Origin: a virus
Taxonomy: Duplodnaviria; Heunggongvirae; Uroviricota; Caudoviricetes
Direction: 5' to 3' (one strand)
IMG/VR virus record: IMGVR_UViG_2711768034_000010
Length of the DNA stretch: 12,525 nt
Shown here: positions 1 to 7,347 of the stretch, piece by piece
Layout of the letters: every line of letters starts with the position of its first letter
Position numbering within the stretch: the first letter of the stretch is position 1
The notes under the pieces: model-generated
Seen by the model: only the letters and a program-made list of their open reading frames with translations
Database searches by the model: none
Told to the model about the DNA's origin: nothing
Program-made: the position numbers and the translations under genes

Positions 1-282
1 CGCCAGTTCGCCCGGATGTTGGGACTTGAACCGAAGAACACGGCGGTGCGGAGTCCGGAGAGTAACGGAATAGCAGAGAGCTTCGTGAAAACGATAAAGC
101 GTGACTACATCAGTATCATGCCCAAACCAGACGGGTTAACGGCAGCAAAGAACCTTGCAGAGGCGTTCGAGCATTATAACGAATGGCATCCGCATAGTGC
201 GCTGGGTTATCGCTCGCCACGGGAATATCTGCGGCAGCGGGCTTGTAATGGGTTAAGTGATAACAGATGTCTGGAAATATAG
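1..282 (+). CDS. insD: IS2 transposase OrfB (InsD-type, rve integrase-core) C-terminal part; 5' end lies outside the window
   Basis: Frame-1 ORF open from base 1 to the TAG at 280-282. Translation ...[20 protein letters not shown]...[29 protein letters not shown] matches my memory of the IS2 InsD C-terminus. Confidence 0.75.
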
Positions 283-293
283 GGGCAAATCCA
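1..293 (+). mobile_element. IS2 (IS3 family) right end, partial; the element continues beyond the left window edge
   Basis: Transposase C-terminus is followed by GGGTTAAGTGATAACAGATGTCTGGAAATATAGGGGCAAATCCA ending at 293, which I recognise from memory as the IS2 right terminal inverted repeat. Not verified by alignment. Confidence 0.75.
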
Positions 294-666
294 ATGATCT
301 AGCGGCGCGACGTAAAGCGGCGTTGAAAGCAATTATAGTGACCGGCCGGCATTGGTACTTCACACGGTTAGAATGGCTCTGAAATAAAAAAACATCTTCT
401 GGATAGCGTTCTCTTCTACGAGCAATGATCCCCTCCACTGGAGGGGTTGATTTAACACGTAGCTCCTTCAGGTGACCCTGTTTTCGTATCAGTATCAAGT
501 CACCATCAATATCATCATATCGAATACTCAGCAGCCTTCCAGCGCTTAAACCCGTGTGAAAAATTAACGCCCACAAGTCAGCCCATGTATCTGAGATGGA
601 AACAAGATTGCTGTTAATAGTTAAAAATTGCTCAAAACTTATTGTTTTCTTACCGTTCACGAACAA
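294..666 (-). pseudogene. Tyrosine recombinase catalytic-domain fragment, 3' end cut by IS2 and no proper start
   Basis: Minus-strand ORF 253..666 contains FHTGLSAGRLLSIRYDDIDGD (box-I-like region with Ser where the Arg is usual) and RPVTIIAFNAALRRAARSL (patch preceding box II). The reading frame runs into the IS2 terminus at 293 before any HxxR...Y motif. The ORF opens with TTG directly after an in-frame TGA (679-681), so no N-terminal core-binding domain is encoded. Confidence 0.5.
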
Positions 667-743
667 ACCAAACTGTTTTCAAAGCTGAATGAATTGATTA
701 AGCCAAACGTAACATATCAGGAAAAGTAGTGAAATCTTTGCCT

Positions 744-956
744 TCAAGTCGCCGGGAGGTACTTGTAGATTGTTTTCACGTCCACGCCTGTCACATCAGC
801 CACCTGCTGCCGGGTAGCGCCGTTCTCCAGCATTCTGCGGCACCGCTCCACCACTTCTTCAGTCATTATCCGGCGGCGGCCGCCGACTCTCTCCTGCTCC
901 ATCGCTGCGGACCGACTCGGATGCATTCGGCAAATTCTAGGCCGTGATTTTTCCAA
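744..956 (-). pseudogene. Serine recombinase (Hin/Gin/Pin-type) C-terminal HTH remnant; catalytic domain absent
   Basis: C-terminal 45 aa GGRRRIMTEEVVERCRRMLENGATRQQVADVTGVDVKTIYKYLPAT resemble the C-terminal HTH of DNA invertases (compare Gin ...GGRPRAINKHEQEQISRLLEKGHPRQQLAIIFGIGVSTLYRYFPAS). The ORF starts with TTG; an internal ATG at 902 would give 52 aa. No upstream resolvase catalytic domain in frame. Overlaps the 3' end of the 266-aa gene. Confidence 0.35.
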
Positions 957-1737
957 TCCTCTCCATCAGATATGCCAGGATGACATCCAGTGTGCTGGTC
1001 CCATATGCATATTTGCCGGGGAAAACCAAACATTCTGACAAAACGGATGTTAACGGAGACACTGAACCATTGCCTGCTCCGCCAATACTCATTTTTTGAG
1101 ACGGGCTATACGCTGGGATTGTATAGCCCGTCACTTGTCGGCTGGTCACTGCAGACTGATCTGACCGCTGGTATGCAATTGCATAGGATCCAGCAGCCTT
1201 GTTAGAGCACATAACTACAGCGCAGAATAAAGATTGCCCTATATTGTTAGGAGTAAATGCCAGATCGGCCTCGATCCCTCCATTCAGAAAAATCGGGAAT
1301 GAACCTGCTGACGTTGTACGAATGCCGACGCCATGAGGTGTGCTTTCCTGGGTTGCGATAACCGCTCTGTCCTGTGGCGTAGCCGGAAGCGCCCCACCTG
1401 GCAGCTGATAGATGAATGCAAAAGTATTGATGTTTGCGTCCATAACCACCGCCGTATCACCAGCCATGCCGGATGCACCGGAGAAATTAAGCCCCTGCAA
1501 AACAGAACCATTCAGCTTTGTGGATGGCTCGAGGGTCTCCAGTGACTTGAAAAGTCCGCCATCTAATCGGTTAGAGATAGCTACTACTTTTGCACCAGAC
1601 CCCATTTTTAGAAACTCTGTCTTCACTGGTGTCCATACTGATGGGGATAGTTCTGAGATCGCTTTCTCTGCCGCTGTTTGTGAGTACACAGGGAGTAAGG
1701 GGTTATTCAGTCCAGTTAGTGTGTAAATCAGTCTCAT
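937..1737 (-). CDS. Hypothetical protein (266 aa) translationally coupled downstream of the tail-type esterase gene; possibly tail-fibre associated
   Basis: ATG at 1737 lies 9 nt after the upstream stop, with GAGGA overlapping that stop (minus strand TGAGGATAAAAAATG). Long ORF with no antisense alternative of similar length. No family recognised. Confidence 0.55.
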   Translation of the reverse strand: MRLIYTLTGLNNPLLPVYSQTAAEKAISELSPSVWTPVKTEFLKMGSGAKVVAISNRLDGGLFKSLETLEPSTKLNGSVLQGLNFSGASGMAGDTAVVMDANINTFAFIYQLPGGALPATPQDRAVIATQESTPHGVGIRTTSAGSFPIFLNGGIEADLAFTPNNIGQSLFCAVVMCSNKAAGSYAIAYQRSDQSAVTSRQVTGYTIPAYSPSQKMSIGGAGNGSVSPLTSVLSECLVFPGKYAYGTSTLDVILAYLMERIGKITA

Positions 1738-1746
1738 TTTTTATCC

Positions 1747-3741
1747 TCAGAAAACGTTAATACGAAAAGCGGGGAGCCAGTCGTAAAGAGTCACGGATGT
1801 GTCATACACCCATATGATTCCAGCGGAAGATCGAACACACCCTCTTGCACCAAGAGTCCGCCCGGAAGGTTTTACAGATGCGCCGCTCTGAAGTGGGTTT
1901 TCTGCTGTCGCATAGGAAACGCGCCCAAAACGTCCAGAGGGGGCGGTCGCCAGGTTAATCAGCACGCCCTTGCCGTCCGAGCTGATCGCGATGCTCGATA
2001 TAGCAGGTGGAGCACCAGTCTCATCCGTGTAGCTAAAGCCGTAATTGGCCAGACCGGAGGTGTTGATCGTAGTCGTGTCCAGCACCAGGTTCGTATACGC
2101 TGGGACATTGATTTGTATCTGCGTGGGTGAGTTCCACACGAAACTGGTCGGAACCATCCCTGACCAGCCGCTCGTAAACCACTCCTGGAGAAGCGCTCTC
2201 GCCACAGCTGCTCCGCGCCGGTTCTGGCCCGCACACGTCAAGTGCAGACCGTCTGAAATAAAATCGTACTGGTACAAACTATTGACCAGCCTGAATTGCT
2301 CTTTTCCGTGCAATCGCGTCGACGCCAGTCGCGCGTACTGGCCTGTAAATGCACCATGCCCGTCATTGACATACCCCAGCTGGGTAATGGCGATAATCGG
2401 CGGTTCGTTTTGACCCGTTCTTGCGATGATGTCGCTGGTGATTTGTCTCTGGTACTGCCTCATCCGTGATTCATACATTCCTTCTCGTAATCCTGACCAG
2501 TCCTCGTCGGACTCTCCCTGCATCCAGTCAACGCAGAGAACAATCGGCAGCCAGCCGCGTGCTTTACAGGCCGTTACGCAGTCTTCGATTGAATCGAGCA
2601 GATACTGATATACCTGGTTACCCCGTTTCTGGTACTCGTAAGCCTGACCAGACTGCGCACATACGATTGATAGCGTGCGCGGCATGATTCCGGTAGCTGC
2701 AGCCATATCGCGAATGAAGGTGTTCGCGAGGCCGCTTGCGGCCGTTTCTTTATCTGTCCCACTTACTGCCTCAACCAGTGGCACCAGAGTAGTGCTGCGT
2801 GTCCCTGTACGCCTAACCCCGCCGCTGAGCATGAAAGCGTTATCAGGATATATCGGCGTTGCTGCGACAATGGTTTGATCGGCGTCAGGACAATATCCTC
2901 GAGCGTTGGATTGCCCAGCAGTCACAAAGATAAAACATACAGGCACTGTCTCTGAGTAGGGGTACACAGTAGACCCTGACAAATGAAGTCCATACTCAGG
3001 GAGCTGGTTGGCATCATCGTCGCCACCACCACCGCCATTTCCGTTATTAACAGCTACCAGGCCACCGTCTGAGTAAATCCAGTGCTTCCCACCAACCGTA
3101 TAAGCTTCAACGATCTGGTTTGTGGTTGAATCAACCGTCATCCGCCACACTTTTTCACCGCCAATAAACTGCGGTATAGAACCCTCCCGGCCCAGCGCAT
3201 AGAGTTCGGATTCTTGTTGGGTTAAAAGTTCGTAATATTTTCCGTCAGGACCGATTTGAATTAATCTGCCGCTTGTATTTAAAAATGGAGCCACGCGGGA
3301 AGTCTCCGGATCATATGCTGCCAGGGTCACGCTGTCTGGCGATACCTGGTATGCGTAGTCGTCACGAACCATCCGCCGTCCGGTTGGCTGCAGCGTTCCA
3401 GCGAGGTTGATATACTCATCGGCCAGAGAGCTTCCGTCCTGACTGCGGACATAGGTTGTTGAACCTGCCGGAATATTCGCAATATCCGCCTGCGCCGCCG
3501 CCAGCGTCATGTACTGCCGGCTGAGAGGGATCAGGTTTTGGCGGGCTTCATCAATAACAGCGTCGGTAGCAGCTGCCATTTTTTTAGTAGCCCCAATTAT
3601 CGTATCCTGGGCGTTACCAAAACGATCTATAAAAGTATCGCTTTCGCTGTTCAGGAAATCATCGTACGCCAGGGCGTTATCATTCAGATCCTTCATGCTA
3701 TTTGAAGGTCTTGGATTGCCGGTATTATATCTTTTGTCCAT
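1747..3741 (-). CDS. Large tail-type protein with central SGNH/SASA-like esterase domain (putative O-acetyl esterase tailspike or tail fibre)
   Basis: Long minus-strand ORF. Motif FVTAGQSNARGY (GQSN block I of sialate-O-acetylesterase-type SGNH hydrolases) and, about 220 aa later, FISDGLHLT (DxxH block V). Start chosen at ATG 3741 (AGGA 7 nt upstream); in-frame alternatives at 3759 and 3810. Confidence 0.65.
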   Translation of the reverse strand: MDKRYNTGNPRPSNSMKDLNDNALAYDDFLNSESDTFIDRFGNAQDTIIGATKKMAAATDAVIDEARQNLIPLSRQYMTLAAAQADIANIPAGSTTYVRSQDGSSLADEYINLAGTLQPTGRRMVRDDYAYQVSPDSVTLAAYDPETSRVAPFLNTSGRLIQIGPDGKYYELLTQQESELYALGREGSIPQFIGGEKVWRMTVDSTTNQIVEAYTVGGKHWIYSDGGLVAVNNGNGGGGGDDDANQLPEYGLHLSGSTVYPYSETVPVCFIFVTAGQSNARGYCPDADQTIVAATPIYPDNAFMLSGGVRRTGTRSTTLVPLVEAVSGTDKETAASGLANTFIRDMAAATGIMPRTLSIVCAQSGQAYEYQKRGNQVYQYLLDSIEDCVTACKARGWLPIVLCVDWMQGESDEDWSGLREGMYESRMRQYQRQITSDIIARTGQNEPPIIAITQLGYVNDGHGAFTGQYARLASTRLHGKEQFRLVNSLYQYDFISDGLHLTCAGQNRRGAAVARALLQEWFTSGWSGMVPTSFVWNSPTQIQINVPAYTNLVLDTTTINTSGLANYGFSYTDETGAPPAISSIAISSDGKGVLINLATAPSGRFGRVSYATAENPLQSGASVKPSGRTLGARGCVRSSAGIIWVYDTSVTLYDWLPAFRINVF

Positions 3742-3781
3742 ACCTGTTCCTGTCTTCATCTTTTCAATGAAGCAATTAAGA

Positions 3782-3810
3782 TTGACGCCCCGCCCCTTCA
3801 GGGCTAACAT
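3782..3810 (+). promoter_or_regulatory. Candidate sigma70 promoter for the regulator/acyltransferase operon
   Basis: TTGACG (3782-3787), 17-nt spacer, TAACAT (3805-3810), about 33 nt upstream of the ATG at 3843. Hexamer match by eye only. Confidence 0.3.
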
Positions 3811-3842
3811 CGCCTTACGTGTTTAAACGGTTAAATAAGAGA

Positions 3843-4106
3843 ATGATTTTAATAAATAAATACACCCCTCCAACGCAGGAAGATTTAGCCAGACTGAAAT
3901 CCGCACTAAATTACTCCGGAAACCAAATGGCAGGGCTCGCAGGTGTAGCCAGCGATAGCCAATGGCGGAAATACACTGGCGGAGAGAGCCCCAGGGTAAT
4001 GTCAAGACACATACTGTTTTATATTGCAGCTCAGCTTGTTCTGTCTGATGAGCAACTTAACAATGTAATAAATAAAATGCGCGATATTGGCGCGGAGATA
4101 AAATAA
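3843..4106 (+). CDS. Small HTH (XRE/Cro-like) protein, 87 aa, translationally coupled to the acyltransferase
   Basis: ATG at 3843 within an ORF opening at GTG 3819. Segment GNQMAGLAGVASDSQWRKYTGGESPRVMSRHILFYIAAQL has an HTH-like pattern. Stop TAA (4104-4106) overlaps the next ATG (4106-4108). Confidence 0.55.
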   Translation: MILINKYTPPTQEDLARLKSALNYSGNQMAGLAGVASDSQWRKYTGGESPRVMSRHILFYIAAQLVLSDEQLNNVINKMRDIGAEIK

Positions 4107-5197
4107 TGCTTGGCCTAATAAGGTTTTTTTTGGCATCGTGCGTCATTGCTTTTCACTTAACGGCTCGCATACCTGCACTTGGCAACTTTGCAGTGAATTG
4201 CTTCTATGTTATTAGTGGTTTTTTAATAACATACATTTTGCATGAAACATACAAGTTCAACTTCTCTATGTTTTGGAAAAATAGAATACTGAGGTTATTC
4301 CCGGCATATATATTTTTTCTCGTCATGGGCTTTCTTATTATAAAATTAATTCCATCCGCAAAGGAATTCCACTCAAACTGGACAGGCAATTTCTTACCTG
4401 GAGATTTATTAGGAAACCTCTTAATCTTCCCCTGGGCTTTCCTTTCTGATAATGCTGTAGCAAATCCATTCGGTGCCTTTTCATCCATTTATCACTTTGC
4501 TATTGATGGTAATAGATTCAGAATAGTCACATCATCATGGTCAGTGGGTGTTGAGATAACATGTTATTTTTTATTGTGGCTTTTCATAGCCCGAAATAAA
4601 TTTACAGCCATTACGTCGATTCTGCTTTCACTGCTTTATCATGCTTACGTATATGTAGTACACCATTCTTTTGATATGGCGTATTTCCCATTCCTTGCTG
4701 CAACACTTCCTTTTAGCATGGGTTCTCTGGGTTATTTTGCCCATAGAAAGTTCAAAGCTATGTATCTTTCTCCACACAAAGCTTTTTTAATAACATTTAT
4801 TTGCATCGGGATTTTTATTACCAATTGGCATTTATATACAATTAATTCATTAGGTCAGTACAACATAATACTTTACTACACCAATAATGTAATAGCATTG
4901 TTTACAACCCTGGTATTATTAAAAATAAAGACAAACATACATCTTGAGAAAATACTCAAGTGGTTTGGTGACCTGGCCTATCCAATTTTTCTTTGTCAAT
5001 ATTTTGGTGGATTTCTAGCATGGCTTGCTATTGGTGGTGAAAATCGTGGCTTATCCATCTTTTTATTAGGCTACCCAATATCAATTGCACTTGGGATCGT
5101 TTGTGTAATATTAATAGACAAGCCACTAATTAAAATTAGAGCAAAAATAAGGGCGGACGCTCAAAGCAAAAATAATCAGGAAAACTCTTCAAGGTAA
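4106..5197 (+). CDS. Acyltransferase family 3 integral membrane protein (O-antigen/glycan O-acetyltransferase type, Oac/OafA-like)
   Basis: 363-aa strongly hydrophobic ORF with N-terminal signature FYVISGFLITY typical of acyltransferase_3 proteins. AT-rich relative to flanks (17/60 G+C hand-counted at 4801-4860). Confidence 0.85.
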   Translation: MLGLIRFFLASCVIAFHLTARIPALGNFAVNCFYVISGFLITYILHETYKFNFSMFWKNRILRLFPAYIFFLVMGFLIIKLIPSAKEFHSNWTGNFLPGDLLGNLLIFPWAFLSDNAVANPFGAFSSIYHFAIDGNRFRIVTSSWSVGVEITCYFLLWLFIARNKFTAITSILLSLLYHAYVYVVHHSFDMAYFPFLAATLPFSMGSLGYFAHRKFKAMYLSPHKAFLITFICIGIFITNWHLYTINSLGQYNIILYYTNNVIALFTTLVLLKIKTNIHLEKILKWFGDLAYPIFLCQYFGGFLAWLAIGGENRGLSIFLLGYPISIALGIVCVILIDKPLIKIRAKIRADAQSKNNQENSSR

Positions 5198-6018
5198 ACT
5201 AAACCATTCGCTCCTTTTCCTGATGAATAGTTACCATTCCCCCCGGCACCACCTGAGCCGGGGAAACCGCCATCATCGCCAGAACTACCGAAGTGGCCAT
5301 TGCCACCCGTTGATGAAAATGCAGATCCTCCAGCCCCGCCAATAAAAGCATCAGAACCATAATACAGACCACCTTGAGATATTCCGCCAGTAATATTTAA
5401 AATGTTCCCGCCACTTCCGATACCTCCAGCAGGAACTGTAGCCCCGCCACCACTCCCTCCAGTAGCTGAGATTAAACTCCCGAACCTTGTATCACCACCA
5501 TTCCCGCCTTTAGACGAGACACCAGCAGCAACAGCACTGCCACCAGTACCTATCGTCACAGATATAGTTTCGTTATCAGAAATATTAAATAACCCTTCCG
5601 AAAATCCACCAGCACAACCTCCAGATGCGCCCACACTAACTGGAGCATTCTGGCCACCTCCCCCCGCTCCCCAAACTTTCACCCGCACTCTTTTCGTCCC
5701 TTTAGTTGGAGTGTAAGTCCCTGACTTAGTAAAGGTGACAATATTAAGCAGGCGACCGCCACCAATCGCTTTAAGAACCTGTGAATCATCATCAGGATCA
5801 AGCTCAAGCCCCGCGCCCTCAACAACGTTTATGTGAACCTCGGCCAGATCTGAGGATGGCCGGGGAACGGCCCGCAGTTGCTCAATAATCGCCGCTCTCG
5901 CTGCCTGCTGGAACTTGCGCCCTGTCTCGCTTACCAGATGCCTGCCTTTCAGCGGTCCCTTGCTCGGGGCGCGCCAGTAACTATTTACGCTCGGTGGAAA
6001 TGGTAAAGTCAGTTTCAT
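5176..6018 (-). CDS. Chimeric ORF: RusA-like N-terminus (about 45 aa) fused to a glycine-rich C-terminal region
   Basis: N-terminus MKLTLPFPPSVNSYWR...GRHLVSETGRKFQQAARAAI parallels RusA (ITLPWPPSNNRYYR...RTHVSAEGQAYRDNVARII), but RusA's catalytic Asp cluster is not found. The remainder is Gly-rich (VKVWGAGGGGQ..., GGSGGG...). Good SD (GGGGG) 7 nt before ATG 6018. The 3' end overlaps the convergent acyltransferase by 22 nt. Confidence 0.5.
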   Translation of the reverse strand: MKLTLPFPPSVNSYWRAPSKGPLKGRHLVSETGRKFQQAARAAIIEQLRAVPRPSSDLAEVHINVVEGAGLELDPDDDSQVLKAIGGGRLLNIVTFTKSGTYTPTKGTKRVRVKVWGAGGGGQNAPVSVGASGGCAGGFSEGLFNISDNETISVTIGTGGSAVAAGVSSKGGNGGDTRFGSLISATGGSGGGATVPAGGIGSGGNILNITGGISQGGLYYGSDAFIGGAGGSAFSSTGGNGHFGSSGDDGGFPGSGGAGGNGNYSSGKGANGLVYLEEFS

Positions 6019-6027
6019 TTAGCCCCC

Positions 6028-6867
6028 TTAAAGGATCGCTACAACGTCTTTTGCGACTTCCCGCGTACTGCTTTTGCAGGAGATCGAACGGCGCGCGTTG
6101 ATGAATTGCAGGTTAAAACCATGCTCCCGGTACAGGTCGAGAACCTTCGGTACAGATGAGTTAGAAATCACTACCCGAGCCCCACGGTGAAAGGCTGATA
6201 CGCATTGCTTCGCCAGGTCTACCTGGTTCTCCCAGTTAAAACCACCAGCGGCGTAGGCGGTGAATCCGGTTGTTCCCGGCATCGGTTCGTAAGGCGGATC
6301 GCAGTAAACCACATCCCCTTTCCCGGCCAGGCTGATTGTCCGGCGGTAATCAGCCGTCATGAATACGCAGTTATGCGCCATAGCCGCGAAGGCTTTCATC
6401 TCATCCATCGGGTAATACGGAGCCTTGTAGCCTCCCCAGCCCACATTGAACTTGTTCGCCTGGTTGTAGCGCATCAGACCATTGAAGCAATGCCGGTTGA
6501 GATACAGGAATGCAGCTGCGCGTTCAGTAGCATCCAGCGTCTGAGAGTTGAACTCGGAACGGATCAGCTCATAGCGCTCTGGTGACCGCATGTGCTCGAA
6601 CATCCAGCGGGCCTTCAATTCCACTTCATCCGGCACGACCGCTAACATCTGATACAGATTAATCAGGTCCGGGTTAACGTCCGCCAGCAGGTAATCTGCG
6701 TGCTTTTCGCTGTTCAGGAATACCGACCCACCACCAACGAATGGCTCTACACGAACTGCACCGGCCCTGCTCCACCAGGAACTGGCCGCGCTACAAGTTG
6801 CGACCTGCGGTATTGTGTTGATAAACTGTTCATGCGTTAGTAATCTCCACTGATAACGACACGCCAC
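6028..6867 (-). CDS. N6-adenine DNA methyltransferase, Dam (D12) family
   Basis: Motifs VEPFVGGGSVFLN (FxGxG AdoMet site), FLYLNRHCFNGLMRYN, VVYCDPPYEP (DPPY catalytic) and INARRSIS align with E. coli Dam from memory. Start is GTG at 6867, the only in-frame start before the FxGxG motif; the N-terminal 40 aa align poorly to Dam. Confidence 0.85.
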   Translation of the reverse strand: MACRYQWRLLTHEQFINTIPQVATCSAASSWWSRAGAVRVEPFVGGGSVFLNSEKHADYLLADVNPDLINLYQMLAVVPDEVELKARWMFEHMRSPERYELIRSEFNSQTLDATERAAAFLYLNRHCFNGLMRYNQANKFNVGWGGYKAPYYPMDEMKAFAAMAHNCVFMTADYRRTISLAGKGDVVYCDPPYEPMPGTTGFTAYAAGGFNWENQVDLAKQCVSAFHRGARVVISNSSVPKVLDLYREHGFNLQFINARRSISCKSSTREVAKDVVAIL

Positions 6868-6894
6868 GACGCCAGGAGCTGCAACTCGCTGGCG

Positions 6895-7347
6895 TCACTT
6901 CTTTTTGCGTGAAAAAAGCGTGATGATTGCGGCAATCTCTTCTTCACGAGCTGCCAGGTGACGGCGGTGATGCACCATGATTTCTTCGGCCTCGTGCCTT
7001 TCAATAACGCCATCTTCAAGCGCCTGTTCGATAATCTGATCAACCTGCCCCCTGGCGGCAGAGGTACGCATTGCCCGGCTAAACAAGTCCACGCGGTCCA
7101 GTTCTTCCAGGTGCGGAACATCCACCAGCAGAGCACCACGACGGCGGGCAAAATATTCAGCCAGGTGAGATGTATTCGAGATGTCCTCCATCGCTTCCAG
7201 TTCGCTGACTTCGAAGAAACGACAGCCGTTTTTCTCGTAAAGGTTGTTGTTAAACTGCGTCACCGTCATTCCCAGTGCGCCAGCCATTGCTTCGCGCCCA
7301 CCTGGATATGCTTTGCACATAGATTTCACGACTTCTTTGAGGTTCAT
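6895..7347 (-). CDS. Phage CII-like regulatory protein (YdaT/CP76-type assignment tentative), 150 aa
   Basis: ATG at 7347 preceded by AAGGAG with 6-nt spacing (minus strand GAAAGGAGTAGGTATG). Lies immediately downstream of the Cro-like gene, as in lambdoid early-right operons. Family assignment from memory only. Confidence 0.55.
   Translation of the reverse strand: MNLKEVVKSMCKAYPGGREAMAGALGMTVTQFNNNLYEKNGCRFFEVSELEAMEDISNTSHLAEYFARRRGALLVDVPHLEELDRVDLFSRAMRTSAARGQVDQIIEQALEDGVIERHEAEEIMVHHRRHLAAREEEIAAIITLFSRKKK

Follow-up and report, generated by a model that had tools for sequence, protein, structure and literature searches.

An in-frame fusion of rusA to a tail-fibre gene is very probably the scar of a large deletion in an Escherichia coli prophage

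How does an open reading frame come to begin as a RusA-like resolvase and to continue as a glycine-rich tail-fibre protein? The ORF in question lies in a prophage remnant within a stretch of 12,525 nucleotides (the window), at 5176-6018 on the minus strand including the stop codon, as defined by the ORF list, a three-way nucleotide comparison and membership of sequence cluster P0001. It starts with ATG and encodes 280 amino acids; the other two minus-strand frames contain 12 and 23 stops. The original prediction was that an internal deletion had fused rusA to a tail-fibre-like gene. We found that a single large internal deletion, of ~25 kb, in a prophage at tRNA-Ser(CGA) (serU/mtfA) of E. coli very probably (probability about 0.95) left this ORF as its scar. 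This is ordinary prophage decay and not a new kind of protein.

The 5' segment of the ORF (5832-6018, minus strand; codons 1-62 and the first base of codon 63) is derived from rusA and retains the native start codon. Over residues 1-62/63, the chimera has exactly the N-terminal sequence of a 125-aa RusA from intact lambdoid prophages and from Klebsiella and Escherichia phages. Compared to the intact rusA of L004 (MLI106K4), coding nucleotides 1-188 have only two mismatches, both synonymous, and the sequence from Dam through rusA up to the breakpoint has 98.3% nucleotide identity to L004 and ~97% to the phages. The spacing from the Dam stop codon to the start of rusA is the same as in the rusA relatives. 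Both synteny and nucleotide identity indicate descent from a rusA gene. The native Dam-rusA intergenic spacer (6019-6027, minus strand) contains AAGGGGG, a Shine-Dalgarno-like motif 5-6 nt upstream of the ATG, and by this reading of the sequence the translation signals of the fusion are intact. Scans around the ORF were uninformative, both for promoter-like sites (5 found, 3.0 +/- 1.6 expected) and for terminator-like sites (3 found, 3.3 +/- 1.8 expected).

The RusA domain itself is incomplete. Its full length is ~120 aa, and only aa 1-63 of the chimera match: phrog_34, the RusA-like resolvase family, aligns there with E = 1.8e-12, compared to 2.7e-46 for the intact 125-aa homologue, and Pfam RusA (PF05866) was not reported for the chimera at E <= 0.01. 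The RusA likeness that was originally described is real, but it extends over 62-63 residues rather than 45. The catalytic aspartates had been described as missing, and we found that they are. D70, D72 and D91 of E. coli RusA align to D74, D76 and D95 of the intact homologue (alignment to 1Q8R/2H8C, with D70 numbering anchored by the D70N entry 2H8C). All three positions lie beyond the breakpoint and are absent from the chimera, in which RusA similarity ends after residue 63. We considered and rejected DDSQV (aa 77-81) as a retained piece of the RusA active site. It belongs to the conserved fibre adaptor and uses other codons, and its counterpart in the fibre of the E. coli MIN9 prophage is DPDDSTQV. 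AlphaFold2 pLDDT was mostly below 50 across the RusA-derived 69 aa, a value that rests on a very shallow alignment there (one RusA homologue).

The remainder of the ORF is derived from a tail-fibre gene. Residues 63-280 correspond to residues 44-261 of WP_001310746.1, a 261-aa glycine-rich protein, with 217 of 218 positions identical (99.5%; BLASTP). The glycine-rich continuation noted earlier is a known domain: PF21722 (Gly_rich_2) matches aa 99-276 with 37.9 bits, above its gathering cut-off of 24.3, and aa 99-280 are 31% glycine. PF21722, AlphaFold2 and Foldseek together delimit a whole distal domain, TNF-like and glycine-rich (TG), at 5176-5754 on the minus strand (aa 89-280 and the stop codon). 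Most of aa 90-280 was modelled with pLDDT > 90. In a Foldseek search, the fibre of cyanophage Pam3 (7YPX_A) ranked first with E = 4e-9, the Bxb1 tail tip and the TG domain of LTK/ALK came next, and a TNF-like beta-sandwich with a glycine-rich lattice was recognized, in the predicted structure only. TG domains are also present in S16 gp38, the Bxb1 tail tip and ALK/LTK. On the opposite strand, a proline-rich ORF (5402-5716, plus strand; 104 aa, 30% proline) was rejected as a gene. As had been suspected, it is a mirror artefact of the coding strand, which is rich in GGN codons and encodes a conserved protein family.

The N-terminal part of the fibre is truncated. The first 43 residues of the 261-aa parent, out of an N-terminal module of ~66 residues, are missing, and the breakpoint cuts a predicted helix (residues 33-49 of the intact fibre). 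BLASTP and comparison to PHROGs identify aa 63-88 (5755-5830, minus strand) as the leftover C-terminal third of this adaptor module. Residues 2-66 of the intact fibre match the N-termini of many tail-fibre PHROGs, and the chimera, which lacks a complete N-terminal adaptor, does not have these matches. In the Pam3 gp24 fibre, trimerisation and docking depend on the N-terminal helix (PMC9608196), and by analogy the lost module would be the baseplate-docking part.

The change from one parent to the other occurs at a single nucleotide. The match to rusA (L004, L007 and the phages) ends, and the match to the glycine-rich gene (HS and 20KM2222) begins, at window position 5831 (minus strand). This base, a T in the coding strand and nt 188 of the coding sequence, is common to both parents. 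Mismatches to rusA start at coding nt 189, mismatches to the glycine-rich gene stop at nt 187, and from nt 188 through the stop codon the chimera matches the intact glycine-rich gene (HS, L001). On a larger scale, window 293-5831 is 99.98% identical to E. coli HS, with the megablast match ending at 5831, and window 5831-6749 is 98.3% identical to L004 20000-20918. Each flank is contiguous with a distant, separately intact gene in relatives, and the switch is abrupt. This nucleotide identity of 98-100% to two separate genes bears out the proposed fusion. The junction connects coding nt 188 of rusA with nt 131 of the fibre gene; since each lies at codon position 2, the 280-aa product is in frame. 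Its junction-spanning tryptic peptide is AVPRPSSDLAEVHINVVEGAGLELDPDDDSQVLK; one more cleavage gives PSSDLAEVHINVVEGAGLELDPDDDSQVLK. A homology-driven deletion was rejected: the microhomology at the junction is 1 nt, and the longest common word near the breakpoints, 6 nt, is located elsewhere. The event that linked rusA to the fibre gene was most probably an illegitimate (non-homologous) joining.

Relatives without this deletion have the two genes far apart. The prophage of E. coli MIN9 is near-complete, occupies the same tRNA-Ser locus, and has ~25 kb between the equivalents of the breakpoints, filled with a Q-like gene and genes for lysis, terminase, head, tail and baseplate. In the window, no Q, lysis, terminase, head or tail genes were found between the fusion ORF and the neighbouring genes, in agreement with the original prediction, and the baseplate and all tail genes are absent. 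In MIN9 and in the intact prophage of 20KM2222, the slot for the fibre comes after baseplate J and YmfQ, and rusA is on the same strand ~23-25 kb away, with Q-like, lysis, terminase, head and tail genes in the interval; the 25-kb figure for the deletion is drawn from proxies (MIN9, HS and 20KM2222). The parent fibre gene is in this position after the baseplate genes in HS and 20KM2222, and MIN9 has the corresponding slot, whereas the fusion ORF is not in such a position. The early region of the ancestral phage was probably lambdoid (int, ParB-like, repressor, cro, YmfL/CII-like, O-like, Dam, RusA, DUF968 and DUF1133), its head genes lambda-like, and its tail contractile and Mu-like. In the tail module, the last genes would have been those for baseplate J, YmfQ and a one-protein tail fibre of 261 aa consisting of an N-terminal adaptor and a TNF-like/glycine-rich domain. 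L004 and the Klebsiella and Escherichia phages share the early region but were rejected as a source of the fibre side; their late genes are those of an HK97-type siphovirus.

The same junction would be left if two different but related co-resident prophages had been joined, or if it had formed stepwise instead of by a single deletion within one prophage. We consider this history unlikely. In its favour, phages with the glycine-rich fibre module are mobile: in 20KM2222 the prophage with this module sits at another locus, yciI/kch. None of 5426 complete E. coli genomes yielded the exact ancestor without the deletion (the query was the HS sequence upstream of terminase, which retrieved MIN9), and MIN9, with identities of 96-98% (early region) and 87-92% (late region), has another fibre C-terminus and other cargo. 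The remnant also has at least one other independent deletion, and the HS prophage has two. Against this, both the fibre side and the integrase/tRNA side are present in HS, at one and the same locus and with 99.9% identity to the window (293-5831 and 11708-12525), and MIN9 is a single phage with exactly this order of early and late genes at this site. Since HS shares both prophage ends but lost the early region instead, HS and the window are deletion derivatives of one ancestor. A single event is the simplest history.

The surroundings of the fusion are those of a decayed prophage. At the right end of the remnant are the integrase gene (11309-12286, plus strand; ORF list and profile match) and the adjoining tRNA-Ser(CGA) (12399-12488, minus strand). 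The same locus, on the mtfA side, is occupied in L002, L003, L004 and L007. Upstream of rusA in the early-right operon is the Dam methylase gene (6028-6867, minus strand), which lacks its first 29 codons and matches PF02086 from profile position 23. A second, smaller deletion, missing from the original prediction, accounts for the loss of the Dam motif PFLKWAGGK. Its scar, with TA microhomology, is at 6748/6749, 900 bp from the main scar, and 1.3 kb were removed: window 6748-7344 and 5831-6749 match segments of L004/L007 that lie 1.3 kb apart. On the other side, the convergent acyltransferase-3 gene (4106-5197, plus strand) overlaps the 3' end of the fusion ORF by 22 nt. This overlap is native to the parent fibre gene and is the same in HS and 20KM2222.

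The chimera almost certainly has no function. Without equivalents of D70, D72 and D91, and with about half of the RusA fold missing, it would not be expected to cut junctions. A role as a fibre is not expected either, because the N-terminal part, which would do the docking if the Pam3 fibre is a guide, is truncated, and because no virion is present for the chimera to join. The rusA ribosome-binding site was kept in an early-right operon under repressor control, so the chimera would be made only if the operon were derepressed. Expression, or some function, is compatible with the sequence, in which the ORF is intact, in frame and preceded by a good ribosome-binding site.

It is conceivable, and in our view very improbable, that the chimera has been co-opted, that is, that it is expressed and that the intact TNF-like/glycine-rich domain or the RusA fragment serves the host. 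In a specific form of this idea, to which we give equally little credence, derepression of the early-right operon would yield a virion-free TNF-like/glycine-rich domain with a host role, for example in surface glycan binding. If true, this would be the birth of a new gene from a prophage deletion. The in-frame fusion with its translation signals fits this idea, as does the complete and confidently modelled glycine-rich domain, and there is another in-frame fusion to the same domain, on a metagenome contig (P0007). However, an in-frame outcome has a 1-in-3 chance. The chimera has no signal peptide-like start, belongs to a repressor-controlled operon beside a truncated Dam gene, and is found in only 10 of the 5426 genomes. 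By analogy with Pam3 gp24 (PMC9608196), trimerisation and docking would require the N-terminal helix of the fibre. Identity among the carriers is 99.9-100%, which leaves too little divergence for a signal of purifying selection on the chimera, in either direction.

We see hardly any chance that the ORF is a genuine phage gene, for a glycine-rich protein with a natural RusA-like leader, which had been offered as the alternative to a deletion. It is uninterrupted, has a real start codon and Shine-Dalgarno sequence, and is present in 10 complete genomes and in a cluster of 63 sequences. However, all carriers have virtually the same remnant, always at the same locus, and the structural genes are absent from it. 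A homologue with the full architecture in an intact phage would have spoken for a genuine gene; none was found. The combination of RusA and glycine-rich parts occurred only in cluster P0001, which is identical to the query, and no other RusA-bearing protein was present among 163 homologues, whose N-termini are instead of the tail-fibre kind, in three or more types. The intact 261-aa form is cluster P0002, with 138 members. Relatives in P0029 resemble error-ridden reads. The switch in parent similarity at a single base, with ~98% nucleotide identity on one side and 99.9% on the other, also argues against a genuine gene. Apart from the appearance of P0029, nothing specific favours an assembly or sequencing artefact (a chimeric contig), and such an error has next to no chance of explaining an identical junction in 10 complete genomes, from isolates of pig, dog, human, river-water and salad origin, sequenced independently in different laboratories.

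We conclude that the ORF, very probably the scar of an internal deletion, should be labelled a fusion pseudogene. In most carriers, PGAP/RefSeq annotates the RusA part as a partial pseudogene 'missing C-terminus'. Two annotations, each found in RefSeq for different genomes, should be avoided: a 'RusA pseudogene' together with a 170-aa 'glycine-rich domain protein' that begins at an internal start, and a 'hypothetical protein'. The locus is a cleanly resolved case of prophage decay at the tRNA-Ser(CGA)/mtfA hotspot, where sister lineages underwent independent illegitimate deletions, here with 1-2 nt of microhomology, and where integrase and repressor were retained together with an O-acetylation/esterase cargo module.

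The chimera can be compared to RusA (PF05866; E. coli DLP12 RusA, 1Q8R/2H8C), with which it shares the gene position after Dam in a nin-like region, the start codon and the ribosome-binding site. Residues 64-125 of RusA, and with them the equivalents of D70, D72 and D91, are missing from the chimera, which is a gene fragment, not a resolvase. Its other part, aa 99-276, scores above the curated cut-off of PF21722, a family whose members in Enterobacterales prophages are named 'glycine-rich domain-containing protein' or 'phage tail protein' by NCBI. At the N-terminus, members of this family have one of at least three kinds of tail-fibre adaptor module, whereas the chimera has a RusA fragment.

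The closest known counterpart of the 261-aa parent is Pam3 gp24 (7YPX/7YFW; PMC9608196). The two are alike in size and layout, with an N-terminal helical module followed by a TNF-like/glycine-rich domain; the predicted fold of the parent matches gp24 best (E = 4e-9, TM 0.52-0.58); and both genes directly follow the baseplate genes of a contractile-tail phage. They differ in that sequence identity is just ~24% and in that no chaperone gene follows the fibre in the E. coli prophages examined. The window protein differs further, by the loss of 43 N-terminal residues and the gain of a foreign N-terminus. As a by-product, Enterobacterales prophages, including those of E. coli, encode a compact 261-aa fibre whose predicted fold matches those of the 'simplified' Pam3 fibre and of the ALK/LTK glycine-rich domain.

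The remnant as a whole resembles the 'grounded' or cryptic prophages of E. coli (DLP12, Rac, Qin and e14; reviewed in PMC6379469). Like them, it lacks genes for replication, lysis and morphogenesis, has decayed by internal deletions and IS insertions, and has kept integrase, repressor and cargo genes. There is no difference in kind; what sets this remnant apart is a pair of breakpoints that fell in frame by chance, at the tRNA-Ser(CGA)/mtfA site.

Our results support the proposed fusion of rusA to a tail-fibre-like gene through an internal deletion. The evidence is the junction itself, which can be placed on a single base, the two parent genes, and relatives that have other genes between them. 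The ORF at 5176-6018 (minus strand) starts with ATG and encodes 280 amino acids; the other two minus-strand frames across it contain 12 and 23 stop codons. Its sole Pfam domain is PF21722 (Gly_rich_2; amino acids 99-276, 37.9 bits, cut-off 24.3), a stretch that is 31% glycine. In PHROGs, amino acids 1-63 match phrog_34, a family of RusA-like Holliday-junction resolvases (E = 1.8e-12), and amino acids 81-280 match the tail-fibre families phrog_863 and phrog_6202. That is, the RusA-like N-terminus is present, and it spans 62-63 amino acids rather than the 45 of the original prediction. The ORF had otherwise been described correctly: the glycine-rich domain, the antisense proline-rich ORF (5402-5716, plus strand; 104 amino acids, 30% proline) and the tRNA-Ser(CGA) at 12399-12488, which a tyrosine integrase gene adjoins, are all there. 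The proline-rich ORF is the reverse-complement mirror of the GGN codons.

We compared 5000-6200 of the window to 5426 complete E. coli genomes by megablast. The whole query matched in 10 of the 72 genomes with a match. In the non-carriers among the matches listed (10 of 62), including E. coli HS, similarity ended at 5831. A query of 5832-6900 matched prophages and phages in which a full-length rusA adjoins the same Dam gene, as in Klebsiella phages KpF5 and ST101-KPC2phi6.3 and Escherichia phage vB_EcoS-733R5. Base by base, coding nucleotides 1-188 of the fusion track the intact rusA of E. coli MLI106K4 with two differences, both synonymous, and from nucleotide 188 through the stop codon the fusion tracks an intact 786-nt glycine-rich gene of HS. 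Amino acids 44-261 of the product of this gene (WP_001310746.1) correspond to amino acids 63-280 of the fusion (217/218 identical). Position 5831, a T on the coding strand, is the single base common to both parents. It is codon position 2 in rusA and in the fibre gene and the fusion is therefore in frame, an outcome with a prior chance of one in three; ATC (Ile63) of RusA and GTA (Val44) of the fibre gave ATA (Ile). With 1 nt of microhomology, the junction suggests that the ends were joined illegitimately rather than by homologous or site-specific recombination.

The glycine-rich parent has the features of a tail fibre. Over its first ~66 residues, the intact 261-amino-acid protein has matches to many tail-fibre PHROGs at their N-termini (1858, 2617, 6859, 1833 and others), and the fusion has none of these. 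The fibre-slot protein of a prophage in E. coli MIN9 has the same N-terminal module (…GISPT…FN..Q.ELVNVVE..G..LDPDD..QVL.A…) and an unrelated C-terminus. Among family members, the glycine-rich C-terminal domain is joined to at least three different N-terminal modules, and a conserved GRLLN motif marks the boundary. Such modular combination of N- and C-termini is how tail fibres are usually built. In an AlphaFold2 prediction, amino acids 90-280 of the fusion had pLDDT mostly above 90, and the best PDB match by Foldseek was the fibre of cyanophage Pam3 (7YPX_A, E = 4e-9, TM 0.52/0.58), followed by tail-tip proteins of mycobacteriophage Bxb1 and the TNF-like/glycine-rich domain of LTK/ALK. The N-terminal helices of Pam3 gp24 dock the fibre on the baseplate and make most of the trimer contacts (PMC9608196). 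When the intact E. coli protein is modelled, residues 33-49 form a predicted helix, which the breakpoint (43/44) interrupts. A mildly notable by-product of this analysis is that enterobacterial prophages are predicted to encode a compact TG-domain tail fibre like that of Pam3.

Relatives show what lies between the two parents. E. coli 20KM2222 has an apparently intact prophage of ~44 kb at a locus other than the window's. There, the identical 261-amino-acid protein comes after baseplate J/gp47 and YmfQ, at the end of a Mu-like contractile-tail module behind lambda-like head genes, and rusA is on the same strand 23 kb upstream. MIN9 has a near-complete prophage of ~41 kb at the window's own site, between tRNA-Ser/mtfA and yodB, that matches the window at 96-98% on either side of rusA and Dam. 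Its early genes are int, ParB, repressor, cro, YmfL, DUF4222, HTH (O-like), Dam, RusA, DUF968 and DUF1133. These are followed by lysis genes and Rha, then terminase, gpW, portal, S49 protease, decoration protein and capsid, and then sheath, tube, tape measure, DNA-circularisation protein, baseplate, J, YmfQ and the fibre slot. The distance from nucleotide 188 of rusA to codon 44 of the fibre-slot gene in MIN9 is about 25.0 kb, and a second estimate assembled from HS, 20KM2222 and MIN9 is ~24.5 kb. Both estimate the length of the deletion from relatives; the exact undeleted ancestor of the window's prophage was not found.

In E. coli HS, the prophage ends are those of the window: 293-5831 matches at 99.98% and 11708-12525 at 99.9%. 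What is gone there is the early region, from within int to a gene just upstream of terminase, so the window and HS lineages descend from one ancestral prophage at the tRNA-Ser site by independent deletions. Relative to 20KM2222, a further 7.8 kb (capsid to DNA-circularisation genes, in the head and tail region) is absent from HS, which retained the intact 261-amino-acid fibre gene. The HS copy (NC_009800.1, 2062568-2082159) thus differs from the window in its pattern of decay.

Only these 10 complete genomes have the rusA-fibre junction; they come from isolates of pig, dog, human, river water and salad, and their copies of the remnant are virtually identical. An assembly artefact was ruled out, as the junction recurs in independent assemblies. 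In a collection of 5.8 billion proteins, the sole full-length match was an identical cluster of 63 members; the intact form has 138. The PGAP annotation of the region takes one of two forms. One is a pseudogene ('RusA family… incomplete; missing C-terminus'), accompanied in part of the genomes by a 'glycine-rich domain-containing protein' that is called separately from an internal start; the other is a single hypothetical protein. A 1554-nt metagenome contig encodes a 442-amino-acid protein in which the N-terminal part of a Mu-like DNA-circularisation protein (PF07157) is fused to the ~87 C-terminal residues of the same glycine-rich fibre, at 100% identity. This, too, looks to be an in-frame fusion by deletion, one that arose independently in another phage copy of this type.

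The chimera has lost what its parents would need to function. The catalytic residues D70, D72 and D91 of E. coli RusA (1Q8R; numbering fixed by the D70N mutant 2H8C) align to D74, D76 and D95 of the intact 125-amino-acid RusA, all beyond residue 63. The RusA-derived segment, for which the alignment was shallow, had pLDDT mostly below 50. Most of the adaptor module is gone from the fibre side, and the prophage remnant has no genes left for a baseplate or any other part of the virion. The fusion kept the rusA start codon and Shine-Dalgarno sequence (AAGGGGG), 9 nt past the Dam stop. It sits in a cro-YmfL-Dam' operon opposite a RacR-like repressor gene (7741-8217), so any expression should depend on derepression. 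We conclude that the deletion produced the fusion ORF as an inert side product and infer that it has no function.

The pentapeptide DDSQV occurs in the fibre adaptor (fusion amino acids 77-81; 5776-5790) and around catalytic D95 of MLI106K4 RusA (amino acids 94-98). We rejected it as a retained active site because the two proteins use different codons for it and it is conserved among fibre N-termini that are unrelated; its presence in both proteins is a coincidence, and a potentially misleading one.

The remnant has a second deletion scar, with 2 nt (TA) of microhomology, at 6748-6749 within the ORF at 6028-6867 (minus strand). The deletion removed about 1.3 kb that MLI106K4 and MIN9 have: DUF4222, the O-like HTH replication gene and Dam codons 1-29, including PFLKWAGGK. 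As a result, the remnant has no replication initiator, and the annotated 'DNA adenine methylase' has a replaced N-terminus and is probably inactive. All 10 carriers also have this scar.

The remnant contains other genes. The product of 1747-3810 (minus strand) is a 687-amino-acid tail-fibre-family protein with a SASA/SGNH O-acetylesterase domain (phrog_4201). It is accompanied by a 95-amino-acid ORF (3819-4106, plus strand; phrog_20491) and a membrane acyltransferase-3 (4106-5197, plus strand; PHROG 'O-acetyltransferase'). This region, 1747-5197, looks like a serotype-conversion-like cargo module that survived prophage decay. A phage that both O-acetylated the host surface and bore a deacetylating fibre would merit study in its own right. 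The gene for the esterase fibre is followed, immediately downstream, by a 266-amino-acid ORF (937-1737, minus strand) that had no Pfam or PHROG matches and is conserved in HS and the carriers as 'hypothetical protein' WP_001237226.1. Between the repressor and ParB-like genes, 8373-9542 (plus strand) encodes a 389-amino-acid protein with an HSDR_N domain (type I restriction enzyme R N-terminal), named 'type I restriction endonuclease' in RefSeq, that may be a prophage defence or cargo gene.

Insertion sequences have also entered the remnant. Window 1-292 corresponds to the C-terminal part of an IS3-family transposase (ORF 16-282) that is absent here from all 10 carriers. Their matches all begin at 293, so the window's strain has an extra IS insertion; it sits in a conserved attL-side remnant with fragments of an integrase (253-666) and an HTH gene (744-956). 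In 7 of the 10 carriers, 89% of the window is covered and the remnant has an annotated ISKpn26 transposase; at one carrier locus, an IS is in place of 8448-9553.

Our results do not support the alternative in the original prediction, that of a genuine gene with a RusA-like leader. Resident prophages are well known to decay by deletion (reviewed in PMC6379469), and the fusion of rusA to the fibre gene is one more case.
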